The notes beneath the pieces are model-generated. The model searched no databases, was not told where the DNA came from, and saw nothing but the letters and a program-made list of their open reading frames with translations. Below, in pieces: positions 11,326 to 24,797 of a stretch of 25,029 nt of DNA. Each line of letters starts with the position of its first letter. Position 1 is the stretch's first letter. Made by a program: the position numbers and the translations under genes. Source of the DNA: a virus (Duplodnaviria; Heunggongvirae; Uroviricota; Caudoviricetes); IMG/VR virus record IMGVR_UViG_2802429227_000004, positions 1 to 25,029 of that record, one strand, 5' to 3'.

Positions 11326-11447
11326 AGAAAATGATGATTTTTTCTATAAGATTCAATCAATTAGTAATGGTCGTAGGTGATGGCATTAACACGAGATTAA
11401 TCGAGTGTTTTACTCCTATTATCGGCACCATTCTAACGTCTCCCCAA

Positions 11448-11597
11448 GTCTACTCAAGTATTTAAAAAACTCTTATAATCCGCATGTTAGCGCCCCTTTT
11501 AGTCTTTTGATGTCTACTTAAGTACCCCAAAATCTACAGTCAATTGGGGGTACTTTTGGGGGTATTTGCTGTTCGGTTTAGTGGAGGTACCCCCAAG
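11448..11597. repeat. Direct and inverted repeats in the 271 bp spacer between the two integrase genes (candidate att core or integrase binding sites)
   Basis: gtctactcaagta (11448..11460) and gtctacttaagta (11512..11524); inverted pair taccccaaaa (11523..11532) / ttttgggggta (11553..11563); extra ggtacccccaag at 11586..11597. Confidence 0.5.
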
Positions 11598-12811
11598 TGA
11601 AACTCAATGCCCGTCAAATAGACACTGCCAAGCCAAAAGAGAAGGCTTACAAGCTGGCTGATGGTGGTGGTCTGTATCTCTTGGTAAAACCTAGTGGAGG
11701 AAAATATTGGCGCTTCAAATATCGTGTAGCTGGTAAAGAGAAGCTGTTAGCACTAGGTGTGTATCCTGAAGTTACCTTGGCTGATGCTCGTGCAAAACGT
11801 GAAGAAGCTAAAAGGGGGATCGCTGGGGGTATCGATCCGATGGAAGCGAAACGAGAGGAAAAGATTGCCCGGGAAACGCAGTTAAACAACACCTTCAAAG
11901 ATATTGCCCTTGAGTGGCACAGCAGCAAATTAAAAAAATGGTCTGCTGGTTATGCTTCAGACATCCTCGAAGCCTTCAACAAAGATGTGTTCCCTTACAT
12001 TGGCAAAAAACCAATCGCCGAAATCAAACCACTTGAACTGCTGAATGTGCTGCGGCGCATCGAGGGGCGCGGTGCTACCGAAAAAGCCAAAAAAGTGAGG
12101 CAGCGATGCGGGGAAGTTTTCCGCTATGCAATTGTCACTGGACGTGCTGAGTATAACCCTGCACCGGATCTCACCAGCGCGATGCAAGGTCATGAATCTA
12201 ATCATTATCCTTTCCTCACAGCCAAAGAATTACCTGATTTTTTCAAGGCATTGTCCAGTTACTCAGGAAGTGCATTGGTTGTTATGGCGGCTCGTCTACT
12301 GATTATCACCGGTTTGCGGACTGGCGAACTGCGCGGTGCATTATGGGATGAAATCGATCTCAACAAGGCTATCTGGGAGATACCTGCTTCACGGATGAAA
12401 ATGCGTCGCCCTCATGTGGTGCCTTTGTCTAAGCAGGCTCTTTCGCTTATTGGGCAGATTAAAGAATTAACTGGCAATTATCCGCTTATGTTTCCCGGCC
12501 GTAATGATCCAAGGAAAACAATGAGCGAGGCTAGCATAAACCAAGTATTTAAACGCATCGGCTATAACGGAAAGGTTACTGGTCATGGATTCCGGCACAC
12601 CATAAGCACCATTTTGCATGAGCAGGGCTATAACACCGCGTGGATAGAGACACAGCTCGCACACGTCGATAAAAACTCAATTCGTGGCACATACAACCAT
12701 GCGCAATATCTGGATGGTCGCCGGGAGATGCTCCAGTGGTATGCCGACTATATGGATTCGCTCGAGCATGGCGGAAATGTGGTGCATGGTGAGTTCGGAA
12801 AATGCGGGTGA
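11597..12811 (+). CDS. int: P4-type tyrosine integrase (404 aa), GTG start
   Basis: N-terminus KPKEKAYKLADGGGLYLLVKPSGGKYWRFKYRVAGKEKLLALGVYPEVTLADARAKREEAK is the hallmark arm-binding domain of P4-family integrases; catalytic HGFRHT ... QLAHVD ... RGTYNHAQY. Confidence 0.9.
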   Translation: MKLNARQIDTAKPKEKAYKLADGGGLYLLVKPSGGKYWRFKYRVAGKEKLLALGVYPEVTLADARAKREEAKRGIAGGIDPMEAKREEKIARETQLNNTFKDIALEWHSSKLKKWSAGYASDILEAFNKDVFPYIGKKPIAEIKPLELLNVLRRIEGRGATEKAKKVRQRCGEVFRYAIVTGRAEYNPAPDLTSAMQGHESNHYPFLTAKELPDFFKALSSYSGSALVVMAARLLIITGLRTGELRGALWDEIDLNKAIWEIPASRMKMRRPHVVPLSKQALSLIGQIKELTGNYPLMFPGRNDPRKTMSEASINQVFKRIGYNGKVTGHGFRHTISTILHEQGYNTAWIETQLAHVDKNSIRGTYNHAQYLDGRREMLQWYADYMDSLEHGGNVVHGEFGKCG

Positions 12812-12909: not shown

Positions 12910-13626
12910 ATGCCAATTGTGGAAAACATTCCTGACTTATCCCACTGGCGAACAATACAGGAGTTTTCTATCACCCAGGCCGCTTTATTGTTGGCCGGAA
13001 TTGATCCTTATGATTACCCTACTCTTGAACATGTCAGAGATAATAAACATGAACGTTGGAAAATGGCATGGGGGTTGGCTAATGGAATGGTAACAGCCAT
13101 CCGTCGTGGTGTCTTAACTCCTGTTGAATGTACCTCTGAAATAGTTGAATACGATAATTGGGGAAATGTTTGTGATATTGAGTACAAACGTCTGACATCA
13201 GCGCAACTGACCGATCGTGCATATGAGATAAGCAAGGATAAAACTTTAATTAGTCGCCATTCTTTATATGAGTGGATAAAAAATGAGAGCGTTGATTTTG
13301 CGAGATGCCCTCGCCCTATACCTGTTAAGGAAGTTAATCCGCCAGCAATCATTGAATCATCTCATCAGGTAATTAATCCTGACGAGTATTTGTGTACTTA
13401 TGGGCATAAGAGTGATGGGTTGGAGTATGTGCAGGATGCTATAAGAGAACTATGGTCGACGTATGACCCAGATGACCCACAGACGGCTCCGACAGAGCAT
13501 GAGGTACTTGAATATTTGAAAAAACGGGGGGCGGGTTCTAATGTTGCTAGGGCTGTGAATCTGATTTTAAGGCCTGAACATCTGAAGCGTATTGGTAGAA
13601 GACCAAAAAAACAAAAAGTTAAATAG
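12910..13626 (+). CDS. Hypothetical protein (238 aa) between int and alpA
   Basis: ORF-track ORF 12895..13626 begins at a TTG; ATG at 12910 preceded by AAGGGGGAG is preferred. No recognised motifs. Confidence 0.6.
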   Translation: MPIVENIPDLSHWRTIQEFSITQAALLLAGIDPYDYPTLEHVRDNKHERWKMAWGLANGMVTAIRRGVLTPVECTSEIVEYDNWGNVCDIEYKRLTSAQLTDRAYEISKDKTLISRHSLYEWIKNESVDFARCPRPIPVKEVNPPAIIESSHQVINPDEYLCTYGHKSDGLEYVQDAIRELWSTYDPDDPQTAPTEHEVLEYLKKRGAGSNVARAVNLILRPEHLKRIGRRPKKQKVK

Positions 13627-13881
13627 TGGTCGCTATTCCAGAAAAATGGTGGTTTCCTTTCAAAAAAAAGTAACCACCAATGCAGATTAAATCGTAAGAA
13701 CAGTAATTTTTCTTCGTGTTTCACGTCAGCATGATACTTAAAATAGTAAACGCCATTATTAAAAAAAGGTGGAGCTATTTCACTGAAATGGTATTCGCCA
13801 TTCATAATGGTAAGCATCTATAAATATCACTTTTCTTAATGCAAGCTATGTACACCTTTATAGACGTTACAAGGTGAATAT

Positions 13882-14079
13882 ATGGCAAACTCTCTTATTC
13901 GTTTAACGGAAGTTCAGCGTAGAACTGGATATAGCAAGGCATGGATTTATCGCCTTATGGGGCAAGGTAAATTTCCTGCATCAGTTAAAATTGGCTCGCG
14001 AGCTATTGCTTTCGTTGAGAGTGAAATTGACGAGTGGATTAATCAGCGTATTGCGGAATCACGCGGAACAGCTACCTGA
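13882..14079 (+). CDS. alpA: AlpA-family phage transcriptional regulator/excisionase-like protein (65 aa)
   Basis: LIRLTEVQRRTGYSKAWIYRLMGQGKFPASVKIGSRAIAFVESEIDEWI matches the AlpA HTH family; position just after a P4-type int; AAGGTGA RBS. Confidence 0.85.
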   Translation: MANSLIRLTEVQRRTGYSKAWIYRLMGQGKFPASVKIGSRAIAFVESEIDEWINQRIAESRGTAT

Positions 14080-14157
14080 TTAAATGGCTACGGGGCCAGA
14101 AGCCCCAACTATCCACTAGCAAATAAAAAGTAACTTAATTCGATAGCAGGAGTTTTT

Positions 14158-15006
14158 ATGAAACAGCGAAAAACGCCCGTACAGGGGCAGGGCTTCGTTC
14201 GGCCTGAAAACCAGAATCTGCAAAATTTCGGCGAAATTATCCCGGTTATTTCCGGCGTTATTGGCGGACGTGAAACCAATATTGTTAGCGCCAGAGCGTT
14301 GCATAAGGCGCTGGGTGTGAAGCGTGATTTCACAACCTGGATTAAAGGACGCATTGATGAGTACGGATTTAAAAAGGGCGTGGATTTTGAAGTTGTAGAT
14401 AATTTGTACTTTGATTCCCCGAAACGGGGGAACCAAAGTGTAAATATTGAACAGTTTGATTTTGATTGGACAACAAAGCGCGGCGGTGATCGTCGCAGTG
14501 AAGACTATTTGATCTCCACGAACATGGCGAAAGAACTGGCGATGGTCGAGCGCACCGAACAGGGCCGCGCCGATCGTCAGTACTTCATCAAATGCGAGGA
14601 GGAGCTACACAAGGTAGCGCCAGTGCGTTCCGCAGCGTTACGCCGGGAACTGAAAGCCCGTATCTCCGTTGCCAGCTACTTTAAGCCGATGTGTGCCGCG
14701 CTGGAGGCGTACCGGGCTGAACTGGGTAAAAACACACTCCAGCACCACTACACCACGGAAGCCAATATGCTGGCGCGTATCGTGCTGGGTGGCATGACTG
14801 CAAAACAGTGGACGCAGGCGAACGGCATCACAGGCGAACCACGCGACCACATGAGCACGTTGCAGCTTGAGCACCTTTCTTACCTTGAGCAGAGCAATAT
14901 CACGCTGATTGAGTTAGGCCTGGACTACCACCAGCGGAAAGCTGAATTAATTCGTCTTTCGCAGCGTTGGTTAGCCCGTCGCATGGAGGAAAACAGCCAT
15001 GTGTAA
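14158..15006 (+). CDS. Phage antirepressor-like protein (AntA-like N-terminal domain, KilA-C-like C-terminal region), 282 aa
   Basis: Segment VSARALHKALGVKRDFTTWIKGRIDEYGFKKGVDFEV resembles AntA/Rha-type antirepressor N-terminal domains; AGGAG RBS. Confidence 0.65.
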   Translation: MKQRKTPVQGQGFVRPENQNLQNFGEIIPVISGVIGGRETNIVSARALHKALGVKRDFTTWIKGRIDEYGFKKGVDFEVVDNLYFDSPKRGNQSVNIEQFDFDWTTKRGGDRRSEDYLISTNMAKELAMVERTEQGRADRQYFIKCEEELHKVAPVRSAALRRELKARISVASYFKPMCAALEAYRAELGKNTLQHHYTTEANMLARIVLGGMTAKQWTQANGITGEPRDHMSTLQLEHLSYLEQSNITLIELGLDYHQRKAELIRLSQRWLARRMEENSHV

Positions 15007-15420
15007 CGCTCTGACCGTTACAAAAAGAGAAAGCGCCCCGTTGCCGGAGCGCCTTTGTGAACGAATAGCCTACTGCGCCATATTGCTTACTGTCTACGAG
15101 GCAGATTATAGCGTTGTGGTCGCACAGAGTGAAGGCGCTGATCACCGTTACTACAGCACGCCAGAAATGCAGAATATTTTGCTGCAAAATGTCGTTGGTC
15201 ACGCTGTCCGGAAAGCAAAAAATTTTGCTGGTGGCGCGACTGATGCGATTTTGTCAGGTCGCAAGGTGATGATCAATCTGATGTCTAATTTCGTTCTGGA
15301 TAAAACAAAGGCGACCGCAGAGGGCCACCAGTGGGAAAGCTACACACTTGAACACATCGCCAACAATGCCAGATTTGCGGCTGGTGGGCAATGTGATCAG
15401 TGTGCTGGCTTGCTGGTGGG
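14999..15420 (+). other. ORF of uncertain extent; only about the first 130-140 codons of the 512 aa ORF-track call look protein-like, and the 3' end is undefined
   Basis: Start overlaps upstream stop as ATGTGTAA. After about codon 140 the translation becomes Cys/Ser/Arg-rich low complexity and runs across a well-supported minus-strand gene (15679..15984) and into gene 16172..16537 in the same frame. Confidence 0.25.
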
Positions 15421-15678
15421 CTATTCCTGCTCTTTAACATTGCCATGCCGCGATGTTTTCCAGGTATGCGACCCCATTTTTGTGCGCCTGTACTCTTTAA
15501 GGAATTTCTCAAGGATAAACGCACAGGGCGCGAATCTGTCTGACTCATATTCGTACGCTATCTTTCTGCGCTGTCTTTTCCGTGCCGGTGATGGTGTATT
15601 GGTCGATTCTTTGTTGGTCATTCTGTGTACCTGTAAAGCAATGCGCCGGAGTTCCTCACACCACGGCGATGATAGTTA

Positions 15679-15984
15679 TTATTCTGATTCTTTGGCCTTG
15701 CGGCGCTGGAGTTCTTCACGTGCGACGGTGACGAGCTGCCCGATCTCCTCGACAGCTTTGACTCCGATTTTTTCCACCTGCGCCAGTGCATTGAGCGAAG
15801 AAACCAGGGGATTTTCTCCGCTTCCTTCTGCCTGGCGGCGGGCGATCTCACCACGCATGGCGGTTACTATGAATCCGGCGTTGCTTTCGCCGTCCAGTTT
15901 TACGGATTCCATGCCTTCAAAAGCATCATGTGGGATACGAATTGAAATCTGTTTTGATTTGTCGTTGATAGTGTTTTTTGCCAT
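15679..15984 (-). CDS. Ribbon-helix-helix-like DNA-binding protein (101 aa), candidate repressor divergent from the replication operon
   Basis: AGGAGA RBS 6 nt upstream of the ATG at 15982..15984 (ORF-track call 15679..16023 uses an upstream Met without RBS); KQISIRIPHDAFEGMESV strand-helix pattern. Confidence 0.65.
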   Translation of the reverse strand: MAKNTINDKSKQISIRIPHDAFEGMESVKLDGESNAGFIVTAMRGEIARRQAEGSGENPLVSSLNALAQVEKIGVKAVEEIGQLVTVAREELQRRKAKESE

Positions 15985-16171
15985 GTGCATTCTCCTAAAC
16001 AAAAGATGTGATTCAGTATACACAAAAAAGAATCACAAAAAATACTTGACCTGTGATTCAGTTAAATTTAATTTAAATCACACCTCAGTAAGAGGATATA
16101 AACGACAACGCCCCGAACTGTTTGCGGCAGTAGCGGGGCGTCTAACCAAACCGTTAAATGAGGTAACGATT
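15985..16171. promoter_or_regulatory. Divergent promoter/operator region with TGTGATTCAG repeats
   Basis: gatgtgattcagtatacac (~16005), gaatcacaaaa (~16030), cctgtgattcagttaaat (~16049), aaatcacacc (~16075); TTGACC -35-like element at ~16045. Confidence 0.5.
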
Positions 16172-16537
16172 ATGGCTGGGGCACAGCATACCCAAACTCA
16201 CCCTAAATTTATATACACCTTCCTGGCGGTGCACCGTGATTGCATGGCTGACGGTAAAAACACTGTTCATGTAGCCGCCGATACGCTGGTTGATGCCTGC
16301 GAGATGCTCAATGACATGGGCTATATCTCGGCAACATGGAAAGGGCGCGAAGAAAACACGTTGTTTATTCAGAAATGCGAAAACAATTTTATCTGGCGTT
16401 TTATCGCCCTGAGTACGGCACAACCGCGCGTGATTCACATCGAGGCCACCAGCGAACAGGAAGCACGCCAGCAATCTCCTGATGGCTGCGTGATGGTATT
16501 CGCTGCCCGTATTCGCCAGGAGGTGGAGCATGTGTAA
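16172..16537 (+). CDS. Hypothetical protein (121 aa), first gene of the small-gene/primase operon
   Basis: GAGG RBS then ATG at 16172; in the ORF track this is the in-frame tail of the 14999..16537 ORF. Confidence 0.6.
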   Translation: MAGAQHTQTHPKFIYTFLAVHRDCMADGKNTVHVAADTLVDACEMLNDMGYISATWKGREENTLFIQKCENNFIWRFIALSTAQPRVIHIEATSEQEARQQSPDGCVMVFAARIRQEVEHV

Positions 16538-16754
16538 TGCAACATGGCCTGATGCAGCGGTAGACGCTATCAAAACGCTGATGGATTCACTTATTGAGAT
16601 TTCTGCTATCGCTGGTGTGGCGCATAAACACGCAGCCAGAGAATCAGAATGCATCTCCCATTATTTAGCATTTGTGCAGCTGAAAGCCGATCAGGCACTG
16701 GATAAGGCCGGAAAAATTATCATGGCTGATGTACAGGAGGTGCACCATGCATAA
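16530..16754 (+). CDS. Hypothetical small protein (74 aa)
   Basis: Start overlaps upstream stop as ATGTGTAA (16530..16537). Confidence 0.55.
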   Translation: MCNATWPDAAVDAIKTLMDSLIEISAIAGVAHKHAARESECISHYLAFVQLKADQALDKAGKIIMADVQEVHHA

Positions 16755-17112
16755 CCTGTCAATTTCTGACCTTAACAGCATTCAGTTTGACGAGATATTT
16801 TCCGGGCAGCTACTGGTTAACGTGGAGAATGGACGCGTGGTAAGTAATTATCACCTGCCGGATGGTGCAATTGCCGGAAGCGTTGAAGCATTGCTGGAAC
16901 TGGCGGAACGTGCGCGACTGATTAAGCCGTCAACGTGCCATCACGATGATGATCTGCATTTTACCGGGTGTATGGTGAGTCACTACGAAAACGGCGTTGA
17001 AGTATCCTGCGAACGTCTGCGTGATGATTGCTGTTTCGGCACACTGCCGGAATTTATCGAATTGCTGACCAGTTGCGGTTATCAGGTCATTCAGGGGGGT
17101 AAACATGCGTGA
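16747..17112 (+). CDS. Hypothetical protein (about 121 aa)
   Basis: GGAGG RBS; ATG at 16747 overlaps upstream stop as ATGCATAA; ORF-track call starts 18 nt earlier. Confidence 0.55.
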   Translation: MHNLSISDLNSIQFDEIFSGQLLVNVENGRVVSNYHLPDGAIAGSVEALLELAERARLIKPSTCHHDDDLHFTGCMVSHYENGVEVSCERLRDDCCFGTLPEFIELLTSCGYQVIQGGKHA

Positions 17113-17338
17113 TGATCGTTTTAATTCCCTGAAACAGGAGTTTGATGGCGCACCGGAAGATACATCGGGCGCATTGTTGAGCATTGCTGACATGATGAAA
17201 GCTGCATATTTTCTTATCAATACCAGGGGCTACAAGTCAGAGGGTGAAATGATTCTTAGTATTGCGTCGGACTATGCTGAATATGTGGCAGAGACGCGTT
17301 ACAGAAGAAAATCTCTGGAGGATGTAAGCCATGCATAA
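17105..17338 (+). CDS. Hypothetical small protein (77 aa)
   Basis: Start overlaps upstream stop as ATGCGTGA (17105..17112). Confidence 0.55.
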   Translation: MRDDRFNSLKQEFDGAPEDTSGALLSIADMMKAAYFLINTRGYKSEGEMILSIASDYAEYVAETRYRRKSLEDVSHA

Positions 17339-17531
17339 TCATGAAGCGCATGTACCCGTAGTGCTTAATGTGCCAGATGATTTCACCGGACGCGTGCTGG
17401 TTTACCTTGATAAAGAAAAAGTGAAATCACAATGCCGACTGAAAAGTAATGAGATTGTGGGTTCTCCTGAATTTTTTTCTGAACTCTGTATTCGTGCAGA
17501 AATAAAACCGGAACTGCTGACAGGAAAATAA
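17331..17531 (+). CDS. Hypothetical small protein (66 aa)
   Basis: Start overlaps upstream stop as ATGCATAA (17331..17338). Confidence 0.55.
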   Translation: MHNHEAHVPVVLNVPDDFTGRVLVYLDKEKVKSQCRLKSNEIVGSPEFFSELCIRAEIKPELLTGK

Positions 17532-17535
17532 AACC

Positions 17536-17826
17536 ATGAAAAGGAAAAATTCTGGCTTTACTGCCAGCGGTCTCTCTCGGCCTGAAATCAGACACGGAGA
17601 TATTTACCGCGACACCAGACGTGGGGGACGAGTGGTTATTCGTCACGTTACGCCAGGCAATATCACCTACCGCCGTGAGGCTTACGAATATGACTGCGTA
17701 ATGCCGCGCCGTCAGTTTGAGCGTGATTTTATTCTGGTGGAAAACAAACAACAGGCAGTGGCGAGACGTGCAGCCACGAATATTAAAAAAATCCGGGCAA
17801 TGTTGGTTGCGGGAGGTAAGAAGTGA
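17536..17826 (+). CDS. Hypothetical basic protein (96 aa) immediately upstream of the primase
   Basis: ATG 5 nt after the upstream stop; 4 nt GTGA overlap with the primase gene start. Confidence 0.55.
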   Translation: MKRKNSGFTASGLSRPEIRHGDIYRDTRRGGRVVIRHVTPGNITYRREAYEYDCVMPRRQFERDFILVENKQQAVARRAATNIKKIRAMLVAGGKK

Positions 17827-19628
17827 AAAACGCACCGAATTTAAAATATCAGCCGAAGGATAAATTCACCGAGGTAATCATTTTTGCCGGGACGGATGCT
17901 TACGCCCATGCTCAACACTGGATTGAAAGCGAAGGACGAAAACACGGCGATAACGTGCCTCCTGTTTACCTGGGGCCAAAGCAACTGGCAGACCTGGCGA
18001 ATATCCGCATTGTCGACGATGAACGCCGCTTTGCGCGTGTCTATCTCGCGGGGGAGATAGAGCCAATCCAGATCAATGCTATTGCTGAAAAGCTGGCGCT
18101 GGCTGGTGTACAGGACGCGAAATTATACAAAGGTATCACCGACCGGGAGCCGGAAAACTGGCGCGACTACCTGCAACGGATCCGCGAACAGGCAGAGAGT
18201 GGGGAAGTTTCAGCGATGAAATTAGCCACAAAAAATATTGACCTATCTAGGCCAGCACTAAATCAGATGGGAGCCAGCCAGAGAGGGGAAGTGTTACTTG
18301 AATATTATGGAAGAGCACTGGCTATAAATGATGATTCTGATGTAGTTCACCATTACAACGGAATTGTCTGGGTGCCTGTATCTGATAAGGAACTCCAGCG
18401 GTCTATGGCGAAGATTTTTATTGATGCTGGAATCAGTTATTCGCAAAACGCCATTAAATTTGCCGTAGACACAATGAAATTGAGCCTGCCTGTTATGGGC
18501 GGGGCAGACAGGAATCTTATTGGATTCAGTAACGGGGTATTTGATACCCGGACGGGAAATTTTCGGGAGCATAACAAAAATGACTGGTTGTTAAATGCCA
18601 GTGAATTACCGTTCAGCCCACCAGCAGAGGGGGAAACGCTGGCAACACATGCGCCGAATTTCTGGAAGTGGCTGCGTCGTTCGGTGGCAGATAATGATCG
18701 TAAAGCTGATCGCGTACTGGCGGCATTATTCATGGTGCTGGCGAACCGGTACGACTGGCAGTTATTCCTTGAGGTAACAGGCCCAGGCGGAAGCGGTAAA
18801 AGTGTGATGGCTGAGATTTGTACCATGCTGGCGGGTAAGGCCAACACAGTATCGGCAAGCATGAAGGCTCTGGAAGACGCAAGGGAACGCGCGTTAGTAG
18901 TTGGCTTTTCGCTGATTATCATGCCGGATATGACTCGCTACGCTGGCGATGGTGCAGGAATTAAGGCAATTACTGGCGGCGACAAGGTGGCAATTGATCC
19001 GAAACATAAAGCCCCCTACTCCACACGTATTCCGGCAGTAGTGCTTGCGGTAAACAATAACGCCATGTCATTCAGTGACCGAAGCGGGGGGATCTCGCGT
19101 CGTAGGGTGATATTTAATTTCTCTGAGGTCGTACCGGAGAACGAACGCGATCCCATGCTGGCGGAAAAGATAGAAGGCGAACTGGCGGTAGTGATTCGCC
19201 ATTTGCTAACACGATTTACCGACCAGGACGAAGCTAAAAGACTACTTTATGAGCAGCAAAAATCAGAAGAAGCGCTGTTGATAAAGCGCGAAGGTGATTC
19301 ACTGGTGGACTTTTGCGGCTATCTGATGTCGTTGGTTAAATGTGAAGGAATGATGGTGGGCAATGCGGAAATAGTGCCATTTAGCCCGAGGCGATACCTG
19401 TATCATGCTTATTTAGCCTATATGTCAGCGCATGGCCTGGGAAAACCAGTATCACTGACACGCTTTGGTACTGATATGCCAGGAGCTATGGCGGAATACG
19501 GAAAGGAGTATAAGCGGGCTAAATGCACTAAAGGCCCGGATAAAGGGCGAGTGATAACAAATGTTCTGTTAGATGATGATGCTGATGGCTGGTTGCCAGC
19601 AGCTACAGGGATTAACGACAGAACATAA
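17823..19628 (+). CDS. Phage/plasmid primase-helicase, P4 alpha/D5 family (601 aa)
   Basis: Walker A P-loop VTGPGGSGKSV in the C-terminal half; overall size and architecture of satellite pri-rep proteins; followed by an iteron origin. Confidence 0.8.
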   Translation: MKNAPNLKYQPKDKFTEVIIFAGTDAYAHAQHWIESEGRKHGDNVPPVYLGPKQLADLANIRIVDDERRFARVYLAGEIEPIQINAIAEKLALAGVQDAKLYKGITDREPENWRDYLQRIREQAESGEVSAMKLATKNIDLSRPALNQMGASQRGEVLLEYYGRALAINDDSDVVHHYNGIVWVPVSDKELQRSMAKIFIDAGISYSQNAIKFAVDTMKLSLPVMGGADRNLIGFSNGVFDTRTGNFREHNKNDWLLNASELPFSPPAEGETLATHAPNFWKWLRRSVADNDRKADRVLAALFMVLANRYDWQLFLEVTGPGGSGKSVMAEICTMLAGKANTVSASMKALEDARERALVVGFSLIIMPDMTRYAGDGAGIKAITGGDKVAIDPKHKAPYSTRIPAVVLAVNNNAMSFSDRSGGISRRRVIFNFSEVVPENERDPMLAEKIEGELAVVIRHLLTRFTDQDEAKRLLYEQQKSEEALLIKREGDSLVDFCGYLMSLVKCEGMMVGNAEIVPFSPRRYLYHAYLAYMSAHGLGKPVSLTRFGTDMPGAMAEYGKEYKRAKCTKGPDKGRVITNVLLDDDADGWLPAATGINDRT

Positions 19629-19991: not shown

Positions 19992-20011
19992 TTGTAACGA
20001 TGGGGCAAAGC

Positions 20012-20542
20012 ATGACTAAGCTGACCATTAACAGAAAACCAAAAGGTATTTACGGCACGCCGCAGAAAACGACGCAGGCGGCACAGGAGCAGGATAAAAC
20101 CACATCGGCGCATAAAGTGATGCCCGGTAACCAGAAAGCGCAGCAGAAGCCTACAGGGGCGACACCGTGGCGGCATATGACCAAACGCCAGCGCAAAAAC
20201 CGCAGGCGCGTTAACCGCCTCACTGAGTTGTGGCCTGACTTATTCAGCCGGGAAGCACTGAAGCCGCTTAAGGTGGGGATATTCGACGACCTGATGCAGG
20301 ATCTCGCCGCCAGGGGGCTGGCATTCGGGCCAGGGGCATTGCGTGCGACGCTGGCATCTTATGCGCAGTGTCCGCGCTATTACCGCGCCTTAATGGCTGG
20401 TGGGGTACGCTACGACCTGAAAGGCCAGCCGTGCGGCGAGGTGACACCACAGGAACAACAGGACGCAGAAACGCGGCTGGTGGCGCTGAATGAGAAGCGC
20501 AAACGCCAGTGCCGGGCAGCAAAGGAGACAATAGGCGCATGA
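20012..20542 (+). CDS. ProQ/FinO-domain RNA-binding protein-like (about 176 aa)
   Basis: LWPDLFS...PLKVGIFDDLMQDLAARG...ALRATLASYAQCPRYYRALMAGGVRYDLKGQPCGEVT resembles the ProQ/FinO domain of E. coli ProQ; start at 20012 (GGGG upstream) preferred over 20000. Confidence 0.7.
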   Translation: MTKLTINRKPKGIYGTPQKTTQAAQEQDKTTSAHKVMPGNQKAQQKPTGATPWRHMTKRQRKNRRRVNRLTELWPDLFSREALKPLKVGIFDDLMQDLAARGLAFGPGALRATLASYAQCPRYYRALMAGGVRYDLKGQPCGEVTPQEQQDAETRLVALNEKRKRQCRAAKETIGA

Positions 20543-20826
20543 TTCACGACAGCAAAGCGGAAGCACTGGAAGCGCGTGGTCTGTACCGGAGAGCGGCGGC
20601 GCGGTGGGCTGAGGTCATCATGCTGGCGAATGATGACAAGGCACGGGAACAGGCGGCAAAACGTCGCGCGGAATGTATCCACAAGGCAGCACGCCCACCA
20701 GCAAGGCAGGATAATTTCGGGGAGATGCGCGAAACCATCAGCCGGGCACATGCCGGGATGGGATTACATCAGCCCAATGGTGAGGCATTCAGGAAATACC
20801 AAAAAAAGAACAATTGTAGTCAGTAA
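20539..20826 (+). CDS. PerC-family transcriptional regulator-like protein (95 aa)
   Basis: MIHDSKAEALEARGLYRRAAARWAEV is PerC-like; 4 nt ATGA overlap with the upstream gene; ORF-track call starts 30 nt earlier without RBS. Confidence 0.6.
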   Translation: MIHDSKAEALEARGLYRRAAARWAEVIMLANDDKAREQAAKRRAECIHKAARPPARQDNFGEMRETISRAHAGMGLHQPNGEAFRKYQKKNNCSQ

Positions 20827-20960
20827 CAGAGGATGGGATTCTCTTGGTTTTTTGTTGATGCTTTCTGAGGAAATCTACTACGTTGCTGAGCAGATGAATA
20901 TTCAATTGCATCTGGGTTCCTGATAAGATTAATCTGAATATTTTCATTTGGAATAGGGAT

Positions 20961-22103
20961 ATGAATAAAACTTTAATTGCAACATTAGTCGGTATAGTAA
21001 TGTTAACCGGATGTGGGCCAGAAGAGTTAACTCCAGAACAGAAACAGGAAGTAGCTGCTCTTAAAGCTGAACTGTCGCAAACGGAAGGTGAAATATCAGC
21101 AGCTAAGGAAGTTGACCAGCAGTTTTCTGGTGGGTTGATAAAAAATCTGACAACAGCAAGACTGGAAATATTAGGAACTAATAAAGCGCTTTTGGAACAG
21201 CGTATTAATGCTATTGAATCAGGTGCCAAAATTGATGTTGTTGTATCTGGAGTAAAACCTGATCCTGAGCTTGCGGCTTCAATTAAAACTGAAATTGACA
21301 GCTTAGATGCAAAAATCAACGAAGCCAAAGCTGATGCTCGTCAGTATAGTGGTGGTCTGATAAAGGTACTAAAATTATCTACTGTTGCCACTGAAGAGCA
21401 GACCATGGCAATGTTGCAGCAAAAGTACCTCACAGCCAAGTATGGCCTCGCTGAAGTTAAGCTGGCATCAGTACAAGCTAATGACGCAAAAAACAGTACT
21501 GAAACGGAAGTAACAGCCAAAAATTCCCAAGAGCAACTTCCTTTACTCCCGCCAGCGGATGGTCCGTTTGGCTTAGAAGCCGGTCTTACACAGAAAAACA
21601 TCGAAGATATGATCGGTGCTAAGCTCAAGCCACTACCAGACAGTGTGAATCTGTATACTTCTGATAAATTACCGAAGCAAAACGCAGATTTTGAAATGTA
21701 TGGTTTGCTGATCTCCCCGAAAGCTGGTTTATGTCAAATACGGGCTTTAGGAAAAAATATTGATACTGATAGCTATGGATTGGCTCTTAAATCCAAGTTT
21801 GAAGAATTGAGTAATTCTTTAAGTTCTCTGTATGGAAAGGCTGATACTACAGACTTTTTGCTGGCTGGTTCAATTTGGAAAGATCCTCAGGACTGGATGA
21901 GGGGGCTAAACAAAAAAGAACGCTTCTTATCTGCCACATGGAAGGGAACAAAAGAAATACCATTAAAAAACAATATTGATACTATATCTATTGAGGCCAG
22001 AGCGAACAATTCCACTCAGGGATATGTCTATCTGCAGTACTCATTTACAAATGACGAAATTTGTCAGGCAGAAATTGAAGGGGCGAAAAAAAGTTCCCTT
22101 TAA
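20961..22103 (+). CDS. Predicted lipoprotein (380 aa) with internal repeats; low-GC cargo gene
   Basis: Signal peptide with lipobox MNKTLIATLVGIVMLTGC; repeated QQFSGGLIKNL / RQYSGGLIKVL units; AT-rich compared with flanking genes. Confidence 0.75.
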   Translation: MNKTLIATLVGIVMLTGCGPEELTPEQKQEVAALKAELSQTEGEISAAKEVDQQFSGGLIKNLTTARLEILGTNKALLEQRINAIESGAKIDVVVSGVKPDPELAASIKTEIDSLDAKINEAKADARQYSGGLIKVLKLSTVATEEQTMAMLQQKYLTAKYGLAEVKLASVQANDAKNSTETEVTAKNSQEQLPLLPPADGPFGLEAGLTQKNIEDMIGAKLKPLPDSVNLYTSDKLPKQNADFEMYGLLISPKAGLCQIRALGKNIDTDSYGLALKSKFEELSNSLSSLYGKADTTDFLLAGSIWKDPQDWMRGLNKKERFLSATWKGTKEIPLKNNIDTISIEARANNSTQGYVYLQYSFTNDEICQAEIEGAKKSSL

Positions 22104-22113
22104 ACAATCCGTG

Positions 22114-22145
22114 CAAAGCCCCTTAGTAAGGGGCTTTTATATATT
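22114..22145 (+). terminator. Rho-independent terminator after the lipoprotein gene
   Basis: aagcccc-ttagtaa-ggggctt hairpin followed by ttat. Confidence 0.65.
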
Positions 22146-22167
22146 AATGTTCAACGTGGGGGATTAG

Positions 22168-22491
22168 ATGAAAGATAATCTAGCAAAACTAATTGAAAAT
22201 ACTTTAAAAGATATTCTATTAGCTAATGCTGCTCTAACATTCATTTTTGCAATACCAATGGCTATTATCAGTAGGCATGGGATGGGCATCACAATCTGGT
22301 TTATAACTGTGCTCATTGCACCTGCTCTGTGTGCAGTAGGTGCATGGCTTGTATCTCGAACATCCGGCCATGCTGAGGAGTTCTTTCATCGTCGGTGGGC
22401 TAAGCGAATTTATGTTTTTTATACTCTTGCGGCTGCCGAGTTTTTGCTTGTGTACTCAATCGCGCAAATAATGAAAAATCTGATGAAATAA
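22168..22491 (+). CDS. Small integral membrane protein (107 aa, 2-3 predicted TM helices)
   Basis: Hydrophobic stretches AALTFIFAIPMAII, ITIWFITVLIAPALCAVGAWLV, VFYTLAAAEFLLVY; GGGG RBS. Confidence 0.6.
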   Translation: MKDNLAKLIENTLKDILLANAALTFIFAIPMAIISRHGMGITIWFITVLIAPALCAVGAWLVSRTSGHAEEFFHRRWAKRIYVFYTLAAAEFLLVYSIAQIMKNLMK

Positions 22492-22685
22492 TTAACAAGT
22501 TATTATCATGGAGCTTGTGGCTGTTAACCTGCAGTGAGGCGACAATCGTGTATTTATAAAAACTTCCCCTTTTCACTCCCCGCTGCTTCTTCTGCTATTG
22601 CCTTTATGTTTGCATCTGCCATACCTTTGCAGAAAAATCAGAGCATTCAGTGCCGAAGGTTGGTTTATTGATGCTTTTCGTTTCA

Positions 22686-22745
22686 TTTATTGCAATTGTC
22701 TCTGGTATCATTTCAATTTGTGCAATAATTGCAATTATTGTCATT
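22686..22745. promoter_or_regulatory. Operator-like array of TTGCAAT-containing repeats upstream of gene 22760
   Basis: ttattgcaattg (22688..22699) and aatttgtgcaataattgcaattattg (22712..22740); the reverse complement of ATTGCAAT is itself, so the core is palindromic. Confidence 0.5.
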
Positions 22746-22759
22746 CAGAAGGGATCATC

Positions 22760-22927
22760 ATGAAAAATCACGGAGTAAAGCCAGTTTTACTTTCCCGGAG
22801 GCAGATCGAAGCCCTGCAACGCATCCAGGACGAAGAGCGTCAGAAATCTGTGCTTGGTGTGGCACCGTCGATTCATGTTATCGCTCGGCAACTGATGGAT
22901 AAGGCACTTAAAGAGGTGAGACTGTGA
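22760..22927 (+). CDS. Hypothetical small protein (55 aa)
   Basis: ATG at 22760 with AGAAGGGA RBS; the ORF-track ORF 22598..22927 extends upstream through the operator repeats and is not credible there. Confidence 0.5.
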   Translation: MKNHGVKPVLLSRRQIEALQRIQDEERQKSVLGVAPSIHVIARQLMDKALKEVRL

Positions 22928-23196
22928 AATTAAATATCAGAGTGGATAAACGCCAGCTATGGCAGAAAAAAGAGAACAGCGAGGCATTCAGGGCGTTGCT
23001 GGTGGAAAATCTTCAGCATCGGTTCAGTGGAGAGTTGCCTGATGCTCTAGGGAAGAAACTGGAATCCCTGACGGTGGAAATTGGCGATTATGGCTTTGTT
23101 GATGTTGAAAGCACGACTGCCAACACAGAAATCGTAAAACAGGTCGTCAATGATGTAATGAAAACCACGCTTAGCCAGCCATCCTGGCGCAACTGA
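22924..23196 (+). CDS. Hypothetical protein (90 aa), GTG start
   Basis: 4 nt GTGA overlap with the upstream gene, suggesting translational coupling. Confidence 0.5.
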   Translation: MKLNIRVDKRQLWQKKENSEAFRALLVENLQHRFSGELPDALGKKLESLTVEIGDYGFVDVESTTANTEIVKQVVNDVMKTTLSQPSWRN

Positions 23197-23295
23197 ATCA
23201 GTAAGGGGCGGTTATTGCCCCTTTCCTCCATACCCACAACGCATTCCCTTTCCGCATGAAATTATTTTTTATCGTATATGCATGAGGTGAGCTAC

Positions 23296-23823
23296 ATGTT
23301 GATGAGTAAAGCCGAATACGCCAAATACAAAGGCGTAAGCCGCCAGACAGTTTACGACTGGCTCGAGAAAGGCGAAGTGGTCATGTCCGGTAAAAAAATT
23401 GATGTGGAAGCGACAGAGCAGCGGAACAGCCCACCAGCACAGGGGAAAGACACCATTTCTGAAATGTGGCCAGAAAGAACGCTGGAAATGACATGGGGCG
23501 AGTTCTGGAAAGCAGTTAAGGCCAGAGACGGTAAAATTCCTGCGCCAGTAACGGACGAGGGCATACAGCAGCGTGTGCTGTATGCAGCCGGGGAATTAGG
23601 CTGGGAAGTGCACTTTCTTGATGATGGTGCTATCTGCCTTGAGGATGATGAAGGGCAGCATTACTTTGAAAAATACAATTTGCGAGGTAATGCCAGGCTG
23701 GCAATTCGTATGCTGCGTTGCGAACTCTGCTATGTTGCAGGTGATTATCCCGATGAACCGGAATCATGGAGTGAAGCCGGGTTAAACGCCCTGGCTGAGT
23801 GGGAAAAATCAGACCATCAATGA
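23296..23823 (+). CDS. Winged-HTH DNA-binding protein resembling the N-terminal domain of lambda terminase small subunit Nu1 (about 175 aa); candidate packaging-redirection (Rpp/TerS-like) protein
   Basis: MSKAEYAKYKGVSRQTVYDWLEKGEVV aligns, from memory, with lambda Nu1 KKQLADIFGASIRTIQNWQEQGMPV (pattern A-x-x-x-G-x-S-x-x-T-x-x-x-W-x-E-x-G); GAGGTGA RBS 6 nt before the ATG at 23296; similar size to Nu1. Confidence 0.55.
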   Translation: MLMSKAEYAKYKGVSRQTVYDWLEKGEVVMSGKKIDVEATEQRNSPPAQGKDTISEMWPERTLEMTWGEFWKAVKARDGKIPAPVTDEGIQQRVLYAAGELGWEVHFLDDGAICLEDDEGQHYFEKYNLRGNARLAIRMLRCELCYVAGDYPDEPESWSEAGLNALAEWEKSDHQ

Positions 23824-24115
23824 CATCAAAAAGTGTCAAGTTGAGCAGCTTGCCAGCTTGCCAGCTTGCCAGGTTGACACTTTACACTCTGAACGCGAAA
23901 AAGTGTCAACCTCGCTGTAAGCCCCGCAATTACTGGGTTTGTGCCAGATTTACCACGTCAAAAAGCCGAAAAAACCGCGAAAAATGTCAAGTTGCCATGC
24001 TTAGAAATGCTAAGGTTTTTCGCGAAAAAGTGTCAAGTGTGTCAACCTGCGATATTAAGATTTATTAAGGTCTTAAGCCGGAAAGTGTCAACCAGCCCCC
24101 TAAGATTTCCTAAGG
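23824..24115. repeat. Array of at least 7 copies of (A)AAGTGTCAA(C/G) in both orientations plus AGCTTGCC x3 and TAAGATTTnnTAAGG repeats; candidate packaging (cosB-like) or binding site array
   Basis: GTGTCAA cores at ~23833, 23873 (inverted), 23903, 23984, 24030, 24038, 24084; cgcgaaaaagtgtcaa occurs 3 times; cttgccagcttgccagcttgccagg at 23849..23873. Confidence 0.75.
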
Positions 24116-24212
24116 TGTGATTGGACGTGCTGTAACCTTCTTGTCGCAATGTGGATGAATGACTATAGTGCTGGTAGCTTTGACAGCAGAATCAGATTAC
24201 TGAAGGAAATGT

Positions 24213-24797
24213 GTGATGAGTTTTTTTAGTCTTTATGGGAAAGAACTATTTTCTTTTTTTATAACGATTTTAACATGGATACTGAATAACAGATTTAAAA
24301 GCAAGGCAAAGTTATCCTATGGTTATCAGCATGGATTTACTTTTCTTCTCAATGAACCCTTACGGAATGCCAATGGTGAGGTAATATCTAATTCACAGTT
24401 GGTGTATACACGATCTATTATTCTTGTTAATGAAGGGCGAGAAAGTGCTACTAATATCTCATTGGTTTTTAACTATAAGCCAATGCATATTAATTTTTGG
24501 CCTGTCCACCATTTTGAAGAAAATATTGAACAGGATGGTCGCTATATTATCAAGTTTGAAAGCCTTGCACCTGGTGAGTCTATTCAATGTGAAATATTAT
24601 CAATAAATAGAGAAGTTCCAAGTATTCTATCGATAAGATCTAAAGAGTGTGTGGCTGAGCCAGTGAATATCGTGATGCAAAAATCGATTAGTAATATTGC
24701 CCTACGTTGCTATCAATTATTAATACTTCTTGGAACTGGCACATTAACATATTTAATTATCGTTATTCTGCAATGGTTAGTCACTAAAACGGGATAA
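24213..24797 (+). CDS. Low-GC hypothetical membrane protein (194 aa) with N-terminal and C-terminal hydrophobic helices
   Basis: Strongly AT-rich coding sequence; FFITILTWIL near the N-terminus and LLILLGTGTLTYLIIVILQWLV at the C-terminus. Confidence 0.6.
   Translation: MMSFFSLYGKELFSFFITILTWILNNRFKSKAKLSYGYQHGFTFLLNEPLRNANGEVISNSQLVYTRSIILVNEGRESATNISLVFNYKPMHINFWPVHHFEENIEQDGRYIIKFESLAPGESIQCEILSINREVPSILSIRSKECVAEPVNIVMQKSISNIALRCYQLLILLGTGTLTYLIIVILQWLVTKTG

Follow-up and report, generated by a model that had tools for sequence, protein, structure and literature searches.

A putative ribbon-helix-helix repressor and four matching operator-like boxes over two predicted divergent promoters at the replication operon of an EcCIMP1-like island of Escherichia coli

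The analysed window, a 25,029-bp stretch of DNA (positions 1 to 25,029 of IMG/VR record IMGVR_UViG_2802429227_000004), is Escherichia coli chromosome and carries an island assigned from its gene content and attachment-site core to the EcCIMP1-like phage-inducible chromosomal islands (PICIs). The proposed repressor of this island, a 101-amino-acid (aa) YlcI/YnfO-family protein with a predicted ribbon-helix-helix (RHH) domain, is encoded on the minus strand at 15679..15984 (ATG at 15984-15982, preceded at 6 nt by AGGAGA). On the plus strand, the next gene begins at 16172 and encodes an Icd-like chimera of 121 aa (16172..16537; NF033153, E=4.7e-23), the first product of an operon that continues through overlapping or abutting open reading frames (ORFs) at 16530..19628 on the plus strand. 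These are four small ORFs, a DUF4222 gene (17536-17826) and a D5_N/DUF5906/Pox_D5 primase-helicase gene (17823-19628), the last two identified with Pfam. An earlier note, made from the letters of the window alone, had described an RHH gene divergent from a small-gene/primase operon across a shared region of 187 bp; the ORF map and RefSeq agree with this orientation, and the spacer (15985-16171) has exactly that length. The satellite context assumed in the same note fits the integrase (int), AlpA, AntA/B and D5-type primase genes and the EcCIMP1 attachment (att) core present in the window.

The spacer contains two exact copies of TGTGATTCAGT on the plus strand (16007-16017 and 16052-16062) and two shorter inverted copies, GAATCACA at 16030-16037, the exact reverse complement of TGTGATTC, and AAATCACA at 16075-16082, which agrees at 7 of 8 positions. 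The earlier claim of TGTGATTCAG repeats in both orientations thus stands for the core of 7-8 nt and fails for the full 10-mer. The resulting four TGTGATT(C) boxes were designated B1 (TGTGATTCAG, 16007..16016, plus), B2 (reverse complement of TGTGATTC, 16030..16037, minus), B3 (TGTGATTCAG, 16052..16061, plus) and B4 (reverse complement of TGTGATTT, 16075..16082, minus). They form two 31-bp units of identical geometry, TGTGATTC-N15-rAATCACA, 45 bp apart; each plus/minus pair is spaced 23 nt start to start with 15 nt between the arms, and the distances between box centres are 23, 22 and 23 bp. Of the four exact copies of TGTGATTC in the 25 kb, three are in the spacer, and the two inverted core pairs (at most one mismatch, 15-30 nt apart) are the only ones in the whole window. 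Shuffling the spacer 20,000 times gave a non-trivial 7-mer in at least four copies in 36 cases. Internal TG...CA dyads are seen in several boxes (TG-N5-7-CA; TGTGTACACA in the related locus L013), and this partial dyad symmetry is compatible with binding of an RHH dimer.

Two back-to-back promoters were predicted in the spacer. The rightward one (P_right), serving the replication operon, was assigned from conservation and consists of a -35 element TTGACC (16046..16051, plus) and a -10 element TAATTT (16069..16074, plus; TAAnnT in related loci), with a 17-nt spacer and an expected start near 16081. The leftward one, serving the RHH gene, mirrors it: its -10 element TATACT (16015..16020, minus) was read from the sequence, and only an A-tract occupies the -35 position. 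TTGAC occurs at the same offset in 15 of the 18 compared loci and TTG in all 18, and a TAtAnT hexamer is found at the offset of the leftward -10 in most related loci. One 31-bp box unit overlaps each predicted promoter. In the leftward promoter, B1 overlaps the -10 and +1 and B2 lies at the far end of the spacer; B3 abuts the -35 of P_right and takes up the first 10 nt of its 17-nt spacer, and B4 follows the -10 and covers the predicted +1. The layout is that expected of a repressor, as had been proposed, with boxes over the -10/+1 regions and in the spacers of both predicted promoters.

The 101-aa protein is labelled 'YlcI/YnfO family protein' in RefSeq, and its membership is supported by a match of residues 9-50 to the 42-residue N-terminal model NF041551 (YlcI_YnfO_N) in NCBIfam (E=5e-18), where a score of 64.9 bits exceeds the curated cutoff of 30. 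The family is narrow: a set of 1.84 billion proteins yielded 41 clusters of it at 50% identity (E<=1e-3), and it includes short forms of 59-62 aa ending in a basic tail. In PHROGs, the protein falls in two families of 'unknown function', phrog_6522 among them. No significant Pfam match was obtained (best PF07704, 15.9 bits with the cutoff at 28.3), no RHH entry came up when the PDB was searched with the sequence or the profile of the protein, and tblastn against the phage collection gave no match; all sequence matches to curated RHH family models were below significance. Structure prediction, carried out on the monomer, gave the fold as ribbon-helix-helix: residues 9-53 (15826..15960, minus) form a domain of about 45 residues with the beta-strand, helix, helix topology of the superfamily (strand at about 11-17, helices at 19-28 and 35-53). 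The top structural match was omega (PDB 1irq), at 13% sequence identity. In the Arc repressor, residues Q9, N11 and R13 read bases. A profile-sequence comparison with hhalign placed KQISIRIPHDAF on Arc PQFNLRWPREVL (P=0.003 as a single comparison, probability 10%), so that the strand motif Q-x-S/N-x-R-x-P aligns with Arc Q-F-N-L-R-W-P and the equivalents of the three residues are Q12, S14 and R16. The predicted specificity segment, comprising the N-terminal arm (residues 4-8) and the beta-strand (11-17, KQISIRI) and encoded at 15934..15975 (minus), varies more than any other part of the protein, which is otherwise conserved, with N7, S10, R16 and P18 invariant in the alignment. Residues 59-100 (15685..15810, minus) were modelled by AlphaFold2 as a single long helix (pLDDT up to 94), which is missing from the short forms. 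Through a nearly invariant motif, SSL(D/N)AL..VE.IG.KA.EEI, within residues 45-100 (15685-15850), the C-terminal part also weakly resembles the helix-hairpin-helix of archaeal Hef (1x2i, E=0.0055), which conflicts with the high-confidence model of one continuous helix; a role in oligomerisation or a helix-hairpin-helix-like region is possible.

For comparison, 18 further loci were collected, nine by a pattern scan of one genome per species, eight by exact-protein look-up, and the known island EcCICFT073. The resulting 19 loci represent nine genera: Escherichia, Klebsiella, Enterobacter, Erwinia, Serratia, Edwardsiella, Yersinia, Xenorhabdus, and Photorhabdus. All loci that include flanks share one gene order, int - alpA - (Ant/Bro) - RHH (minus) / small genes - DUF4222 - primase, and several carry capsid and protease genes and so resemble capsid-forming PICIs (cf-PICIs). 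The box positions carry repeats in the 18 other loci too: across all 19, the box starts are fixed at approximately +23, +47, +68, and +92 from the RHH ATG, and the -35 TTGAC at approximately +62. The box sequence differs between lineages, changing in all four boxes at once and together with the strand residues. Seven classes were distinguished by residues 12-15 and boxes. Class 1 (QISI; core TGTGATTC, box TGTGATTCAG) comprises the window and loci of Klebsiella, Edwardsiella and Serratia; class 2 (L[TF]TV; core TGTGTTTC, box TGTGTTTCA) those of E. coli, Xenorhabdus, Photorhabdus, Serratia and Enterobacter; and class 3 (SLTA; box TGTAAGAC) Enterobacter and locus L017, the protein of which is labelled Klebsiella by one source. 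Class 4 ([LVM]KN[IV]; box GGTGTGTA) was found in Erwinia, E. coli and a contig labelled Martelella, class 5 (QLNA; core TGGTATTC, box TGGTATTCA) in E. coli, class 6 (MTTI; core TGTATATC, box TGTATATCAC) in Yersinia, and class 7 (ALKA, a short form; core GTGGGCCAC, box GTGGGCCACAC) in EcCICFT073. Classes 1 and 2, the spacers of which can be aligned, are separated by a single core substitution (A to T at position 5) that is present in all four boxes; the class-2 sequence of protein residues 4-15 is TSNKNAKSQLTTV.

Mutual information with the box class was highest at protein columns 4, 5, 8, 12, 13, and 14 (1.7-1.96 of 2.55 bits) and reached at most 1.33 bits beyond residue 20. In this comparison the seven box classes track residues 4-8 and 12-15, the positions at which an RHH protein is predicted to set its specificity. 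Where the strands differ, RHH proteins that are 78-82% identical overall have different boxes, and where the strand is the same, the boxes are shared even by proteins only 69-71% identical. A concerted change at four sites, tied to the predicted DNA-reading residues, is what would be expected of a cognate repressor/operator pair.

From the in silico observations on fold, layout, repeats and protein-operator co-variation, we infer dimer binding, repression, autoregulation and a route of derepression. It is probable that an autoregulated RHH repressor of the Arc/Mnt/omega type shuts off the replication operon through the four boxes over both promoters. One RHH dimer would bind each box of about 10 bp through the N-terminal arm and a two-stranded beta-sheet. 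The boxes are mirrored around the back-to-back promoters, one abutting the -35 in the spacer and the other covering -10/+1, and their occupancy should therefore exclude RNA polymerase from both. Such occupancy would hold the Icd-like/small-gene/DUF4222/primase operon off in the integrated state, and the RHH protein would limit its own synthesis by negative autoregulation. Lineages with different arm/strand residues and matching boxes would then represent element-specific 'immunity' classes. How repression would be relieved after helper-phage induction is more speculative: the favoured route is that AlpA-driven alpA-antA transcription reads convergently through the RHH gene into the replication operon, and the alternative is a helper- or satellite-encoded antirepressor. 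Stimulated read-through is possible because no plus-strand intrinsic terminator was found between alpA/antA and the spacer (13600-15700). On the minus strand, a terminator-like hairpin at 15310..15329 ends the leftward RHH transcript, and a stronger one lies at 15030-15055. With no plus-strand terminator and two leftward hairpins after the RHH unit and the small ORF that follows it, alpA-operon and RHH transcription would be convergent and could interfere with each other.

Several points weigh against this interpretation. A consensus promoter scan called no promoter in the spacer, and the promoter assignments therefore rest on conservation; the -10 element TAATTT matches the consensus at 3 of 6 positions, and the leftward promoter is without a recognisable -35. 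In the operators of Arc, CopG and omega, dimers bind 7-11 bp apart, and the centre-to-centre spacing of 22-23 bp in the spacer is wider. This spacing puts neighbouring dimers on roughly the same DNA face, and the C-terminal helix of 40 residues could, on the model, bridge them; since the short forms keep the same box spacing without that helix, the spacing may simply follow promoter geometry. Protein and operator are linked in cis and inherited together, so that part of their association is shared ancestry and co-variation is no proof of binding; both binding and repression are deduced from sequence comparison. In EcCICFT073, over-expression of AlpA alone triggers excision and replication (PMC6092414), and any repression there can therefore be overridden; this AlpA-inducible island carries only the 59-aa short form. 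No boxes were found near int or alpA in the window, and the regulon looks local. This suggests that the RHH protein gates the replication operon and is not a global master repressor.

These results bear differently on the parts of the earlier note's proposal. That the repeats are the protein's own operators is supported by the co-variation of the box sequence with the arm/strand residues and with nothing else that was checked, and a repressor of RHH rather than Stl type, coexisting with AlpA, agrees with the predicted fold and with the AlpA gene at 13882-14079. Of the master repressor/operator switch, a likely RHH regulator with its own operators at the operon promoter is retained, and the word 'master' is unproven.

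Among other readings of the boxes, it is unlikely, at a small but appreciable chance, that the protein binds them mainly as an activator or dual regulator and stimulates one promoter from the boxes of the other. Mnt combines activation of its own promoter with repression of Pant, B1 and B2 have their centres near -70 and -47 relative to the predicted P_right start, which are classical activator positions, and a leftward promoter lacking a -35 might need help. However, each promoter also has two boxes in its own core, in the spacer and at -10/+1, which favours occlusion, and EcCICFT073 retains strong boxes only at P_right.

The boxes might instead be read by AlpA, a Cro-like first operon protein, the primase (as iterons or an origin) or a host protein, the RHH gene being incidental; this appears very improbable. 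Repeats near replication genes can be iterons, and AlpA is a known activator of PICI genes (PMC6092414). However, the RHH arm/strand residues predict the box class, which varies independently of AlpA, of the first gene and of the primase type. Between an E. coli class-2 locus (L015) and EcCICFT073 (class 7), the boxes of which differ, AlpA identity is 94%; between two class-2 elements with the same boxes it is only 44%. Likewise, class-4 and class-5 elements (L011 and L013), which have different boxes, share a first operon gene at 86% identity, and in two class-1 elements this gene is only 21% identical. AlpA and the first operon gene were rejected as box readers on these dissociations. One box class co-occurs with D5_N, DUF927, and Toprim-DUF927 primases, and the iteron/origin reading was rejected for this occurrence of the same boxes with different primase families; PICI origins, moreover, are reported downstream of pri (PMC10111431). 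Against a host factor stands the presence of several box classes within E. coli.

A slighter chance still is given to an omega/ParG-like centromere-binding or copy-control protein of the excised replicon in place of a lysogeny-type repressor. Omega, the top structural match, binds WATCACW heptads, to which the class-1 core AATCACA can be compared, and the boxes lie upstream of replication genes. However, no ParA/ParM partner is encoded in the window, the four boxes are widely spaced and not contiguous heptads, and the element is normally integrated.

A very basic 66-aa ORF (15421..15621, minus; phrog_21027, unknown function) with the sequence SPARKRQRRK...ERFAPCAF.LE.FLKEYR follows the RHH gene and is probably co-transcribed with it. 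Its homologues, of 57 aa, are situated 58 nt past the RHH stop in all E. coli loci, EcCICFT073 included, and are absent from the non-E. coli genera among the compared loci. Least probable of all is a type II toxin-antitoxin pair made up of this ORF and, as antitoxin, the RHH protein, the repeats serving only autoregulation of the pair: the ORF has no toxin-family match in Pfam or NCBIfam, is dispensable outside E. coli, where the RHH gene and boxes are retained, and is 98-100% identical beside different RHH classes and beside the short form lacking the C-terminus, and half of the boxes lie on the replication-operon promoter; the reading was rejected on the dispensability of the ORF. On the opposite strand, an open frame of 512 codons (14999-16537, plus) runs antisense to the 66-aa ORF, the RHH gene and the spacer and into the Icd-like gene; it is present only in the mechanical ORF list, is absent from the RefSeq annotation and is probably not a gene.

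Between P_right and the first operon gene, a conserved structured leader was recognised (16108..16171, plus). It includes a bipartite hairpin (16108-16141), the invariant TCTAACCA (16141-16148) and a small hairpin with the Shine-Dalgarno sequence GAGG (16160-16163); compensatory changes were present in the alignment of 15 loci, and the minimum free energy z-score was -2.85. Rfam gave only sub-threshold matches in the spacer, the best relevant one being RF00043 (R1162 antisense RNA, E=0.61), and nothing at gathering thresholds across the whole window. An intrinsic terminator was ruled out for want of a U-tract. The leader might be the target of an RNA-binding protein, the island encoding a ProQ/FinO-family protein, or of an antisense RNA. 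The Icd-like gene that follows is annotated in RefSeq only in its 3' part, as a partial pseudogene. Residues 1-38 of its product match the start of the first gene product of the Yersinia element, and residues 57-118 match almost the whole Icd-like protein of EcCICFT073, so that the gene combines parts of two different Icd-like genes.

The 10-bp att core TCCTATTATC, reported for PICI EcCIMP1 (PMC11773190), is present here in one copy at 11414-11423, just left of int and between intF of the CP4-6 prophage and the island integrase; this copy probably marks the left end of the island, and the right end is beyond the window. The P4-type int gene (11597-12811, plus) is followed by a hypothetical gene, a gene for an AlpA-family helix-turn-helix protein (13882-14079; PF05930, E=2.4e-19) and an AntA/AntB gene (14158-15006). 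Because many loci that have the module lack an Ant/Bro gene, AntA/B was rejected as its obligatory antirepressor partner. Just 3' of the primase gene, overlapping genes (20000-20826) encode ProQ/FinO-family (180 aa) and PerC-family (105 aa) proteins, an accessory pair reported in other enterobacterial PICIs; the EcCIMP1 PerC homologue silences LEE1 expression (PMC11773190). As in other Gram-negative PICIs, int, alpA and pri occur in this order, and no tail or lysis domains were found among the ORFs tested at 20000-24797; no tRNA gene was found in the window. The 1.2 kb around the RHH gene and spacer are 100% identical to E. coli strain 1008S13 in a similarity search, and 1,341 of 5,426 complete E. 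coli genomes contain similar sequence, which in 48 of them covers 80% or more of the query. The 1008S13 island (NZ_CP147053.1, L001) is otherwise identical, but its primase gene is broken by IS5 (L001 12102-13070), and that copy is probably replication-defective, unlike the window, in which the primase gene is intact.

In function, the proposed repressor resembles the Mnt and Arc proteins of phage P22 and the plasmid regulators omega and CopG. In P22 immI, the RHH repressors Mnt and Arc control Pant and Pmnt. The island shares with this system a small RHH repressor divergent from the operon it would control, operators over back-to-back promoters, presumptive autoregulation and a nearby Ant-family gene, and with Mnt an RHH domain extended by a C-terminal helical region. 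It differs in showing no significant sequence homology (hhalign probability 10%), in having four boxes 22-23 bp apart, where P22 has one 21-bp operator of two adjacent half-sites, in an operon that encodes replication functions and not an antirepressor, and in its carrier, a satellite and not a phage. Omega of inc18 plasmids (1irq) has contiguous heptads spaced at 7 bp, in 7-10 copies, and in comparison with these the boxes of the island are isolated.

Stl and Rpr, the master repressors of the Staphylococcus aureus pathogenicity islands (SaPIs) and of Gram-positive PICIs, are helix-turn-helix proteins whose genes run in the direction of int. The protein described here has a predicted RHH fold, is encoded opposite to int (plus) and alpA, and coexists with the AlpA activator. 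Its map position is that of Stl and Rpr (PMC6092414), divergent from the xis/pri-rep operon, and its presumed job is likewise to silence the replication genes until a helper phage is active. EcCIMP1 has the same att core and the gene set of int, AlpA, antirepressor, primase, and PerC, and EcCICFT073 (L023, NC_004431.1, 1380242-1381052) has the 59-aa YlcI/YnfO gene, a 57-aa ORF, repeated boxes and a TTGAC promoter between alpA and the Icd-like gene, with two GTGGGCCACACC boxes flanking the -10 of the TTGACG promoter. The late-series locus tags of its RHH gene and small ORF (C_RS30120 and C_RS30800) suggest that both were added after the original annotation. Helper-phage induction and packaging have been shown experimentally for both islands, and AlpA, named as the regulator in both papers, is required for their induction (PMC6092414 for EcCICFT073, PMC11773190 for EcCIMP1). 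In the 2018 description, the global repressor in Gram-negative PICIs was 'unclear' (PMC6092414). In a 2023 survey, int, alpA, pri and most other PICI genes were unidirectional, and a gene of this kind was unmentioned (PMC10111431). A 2026 survey names 'YlcI/YnfO' only as an accessory 'prophage-associated protein', and the EcCIMP1 and cf-PICI papers contain no mention of an RHH gene. No RHH repressor in Gram-negative PICIs, and no repressor of EcCICFT073, was found in the searchable literature, outside which most subscription-journal papers lie.

An RHH regulator is of a well-known kind, and the interest of this one lies in its context, as it may be an overlooked repressor of enterobacterial PICIs, and in a clear series of matched specificities. 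The analysis provides a concrete candidate repressor with defined operators at the position of Stl in SaPIs, conserved across nine enterobacterial genera, a candidate function for the uncharacterised YlcI/YnfO family, which includes y-genes of E. coli K-12, and naturally matched pairs of RHH protein and operator on which recognition codes could be studied or engineered. Silencing of satellite replication, its override by AlpA or the helper, and a possible role of the classes in the coexistence of several PICIs in one cell become directly testable. More tentatively, and on balance doubtfully, the RHH protein may be the hitherto missing counterpart of Stl in enterobacterial PICIs and cf-PICIs, a resident repressor whose loss alone would trigger replication, with at least seven immunity classes and override by AlpA read-through or a helper-encoded antirepressor. 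If so, induction of Gram-negative PICIs would be a two-key system of activator and repressor, not an activator-only one, and the operator classes would keep co-resident satellites from cross-regulating.

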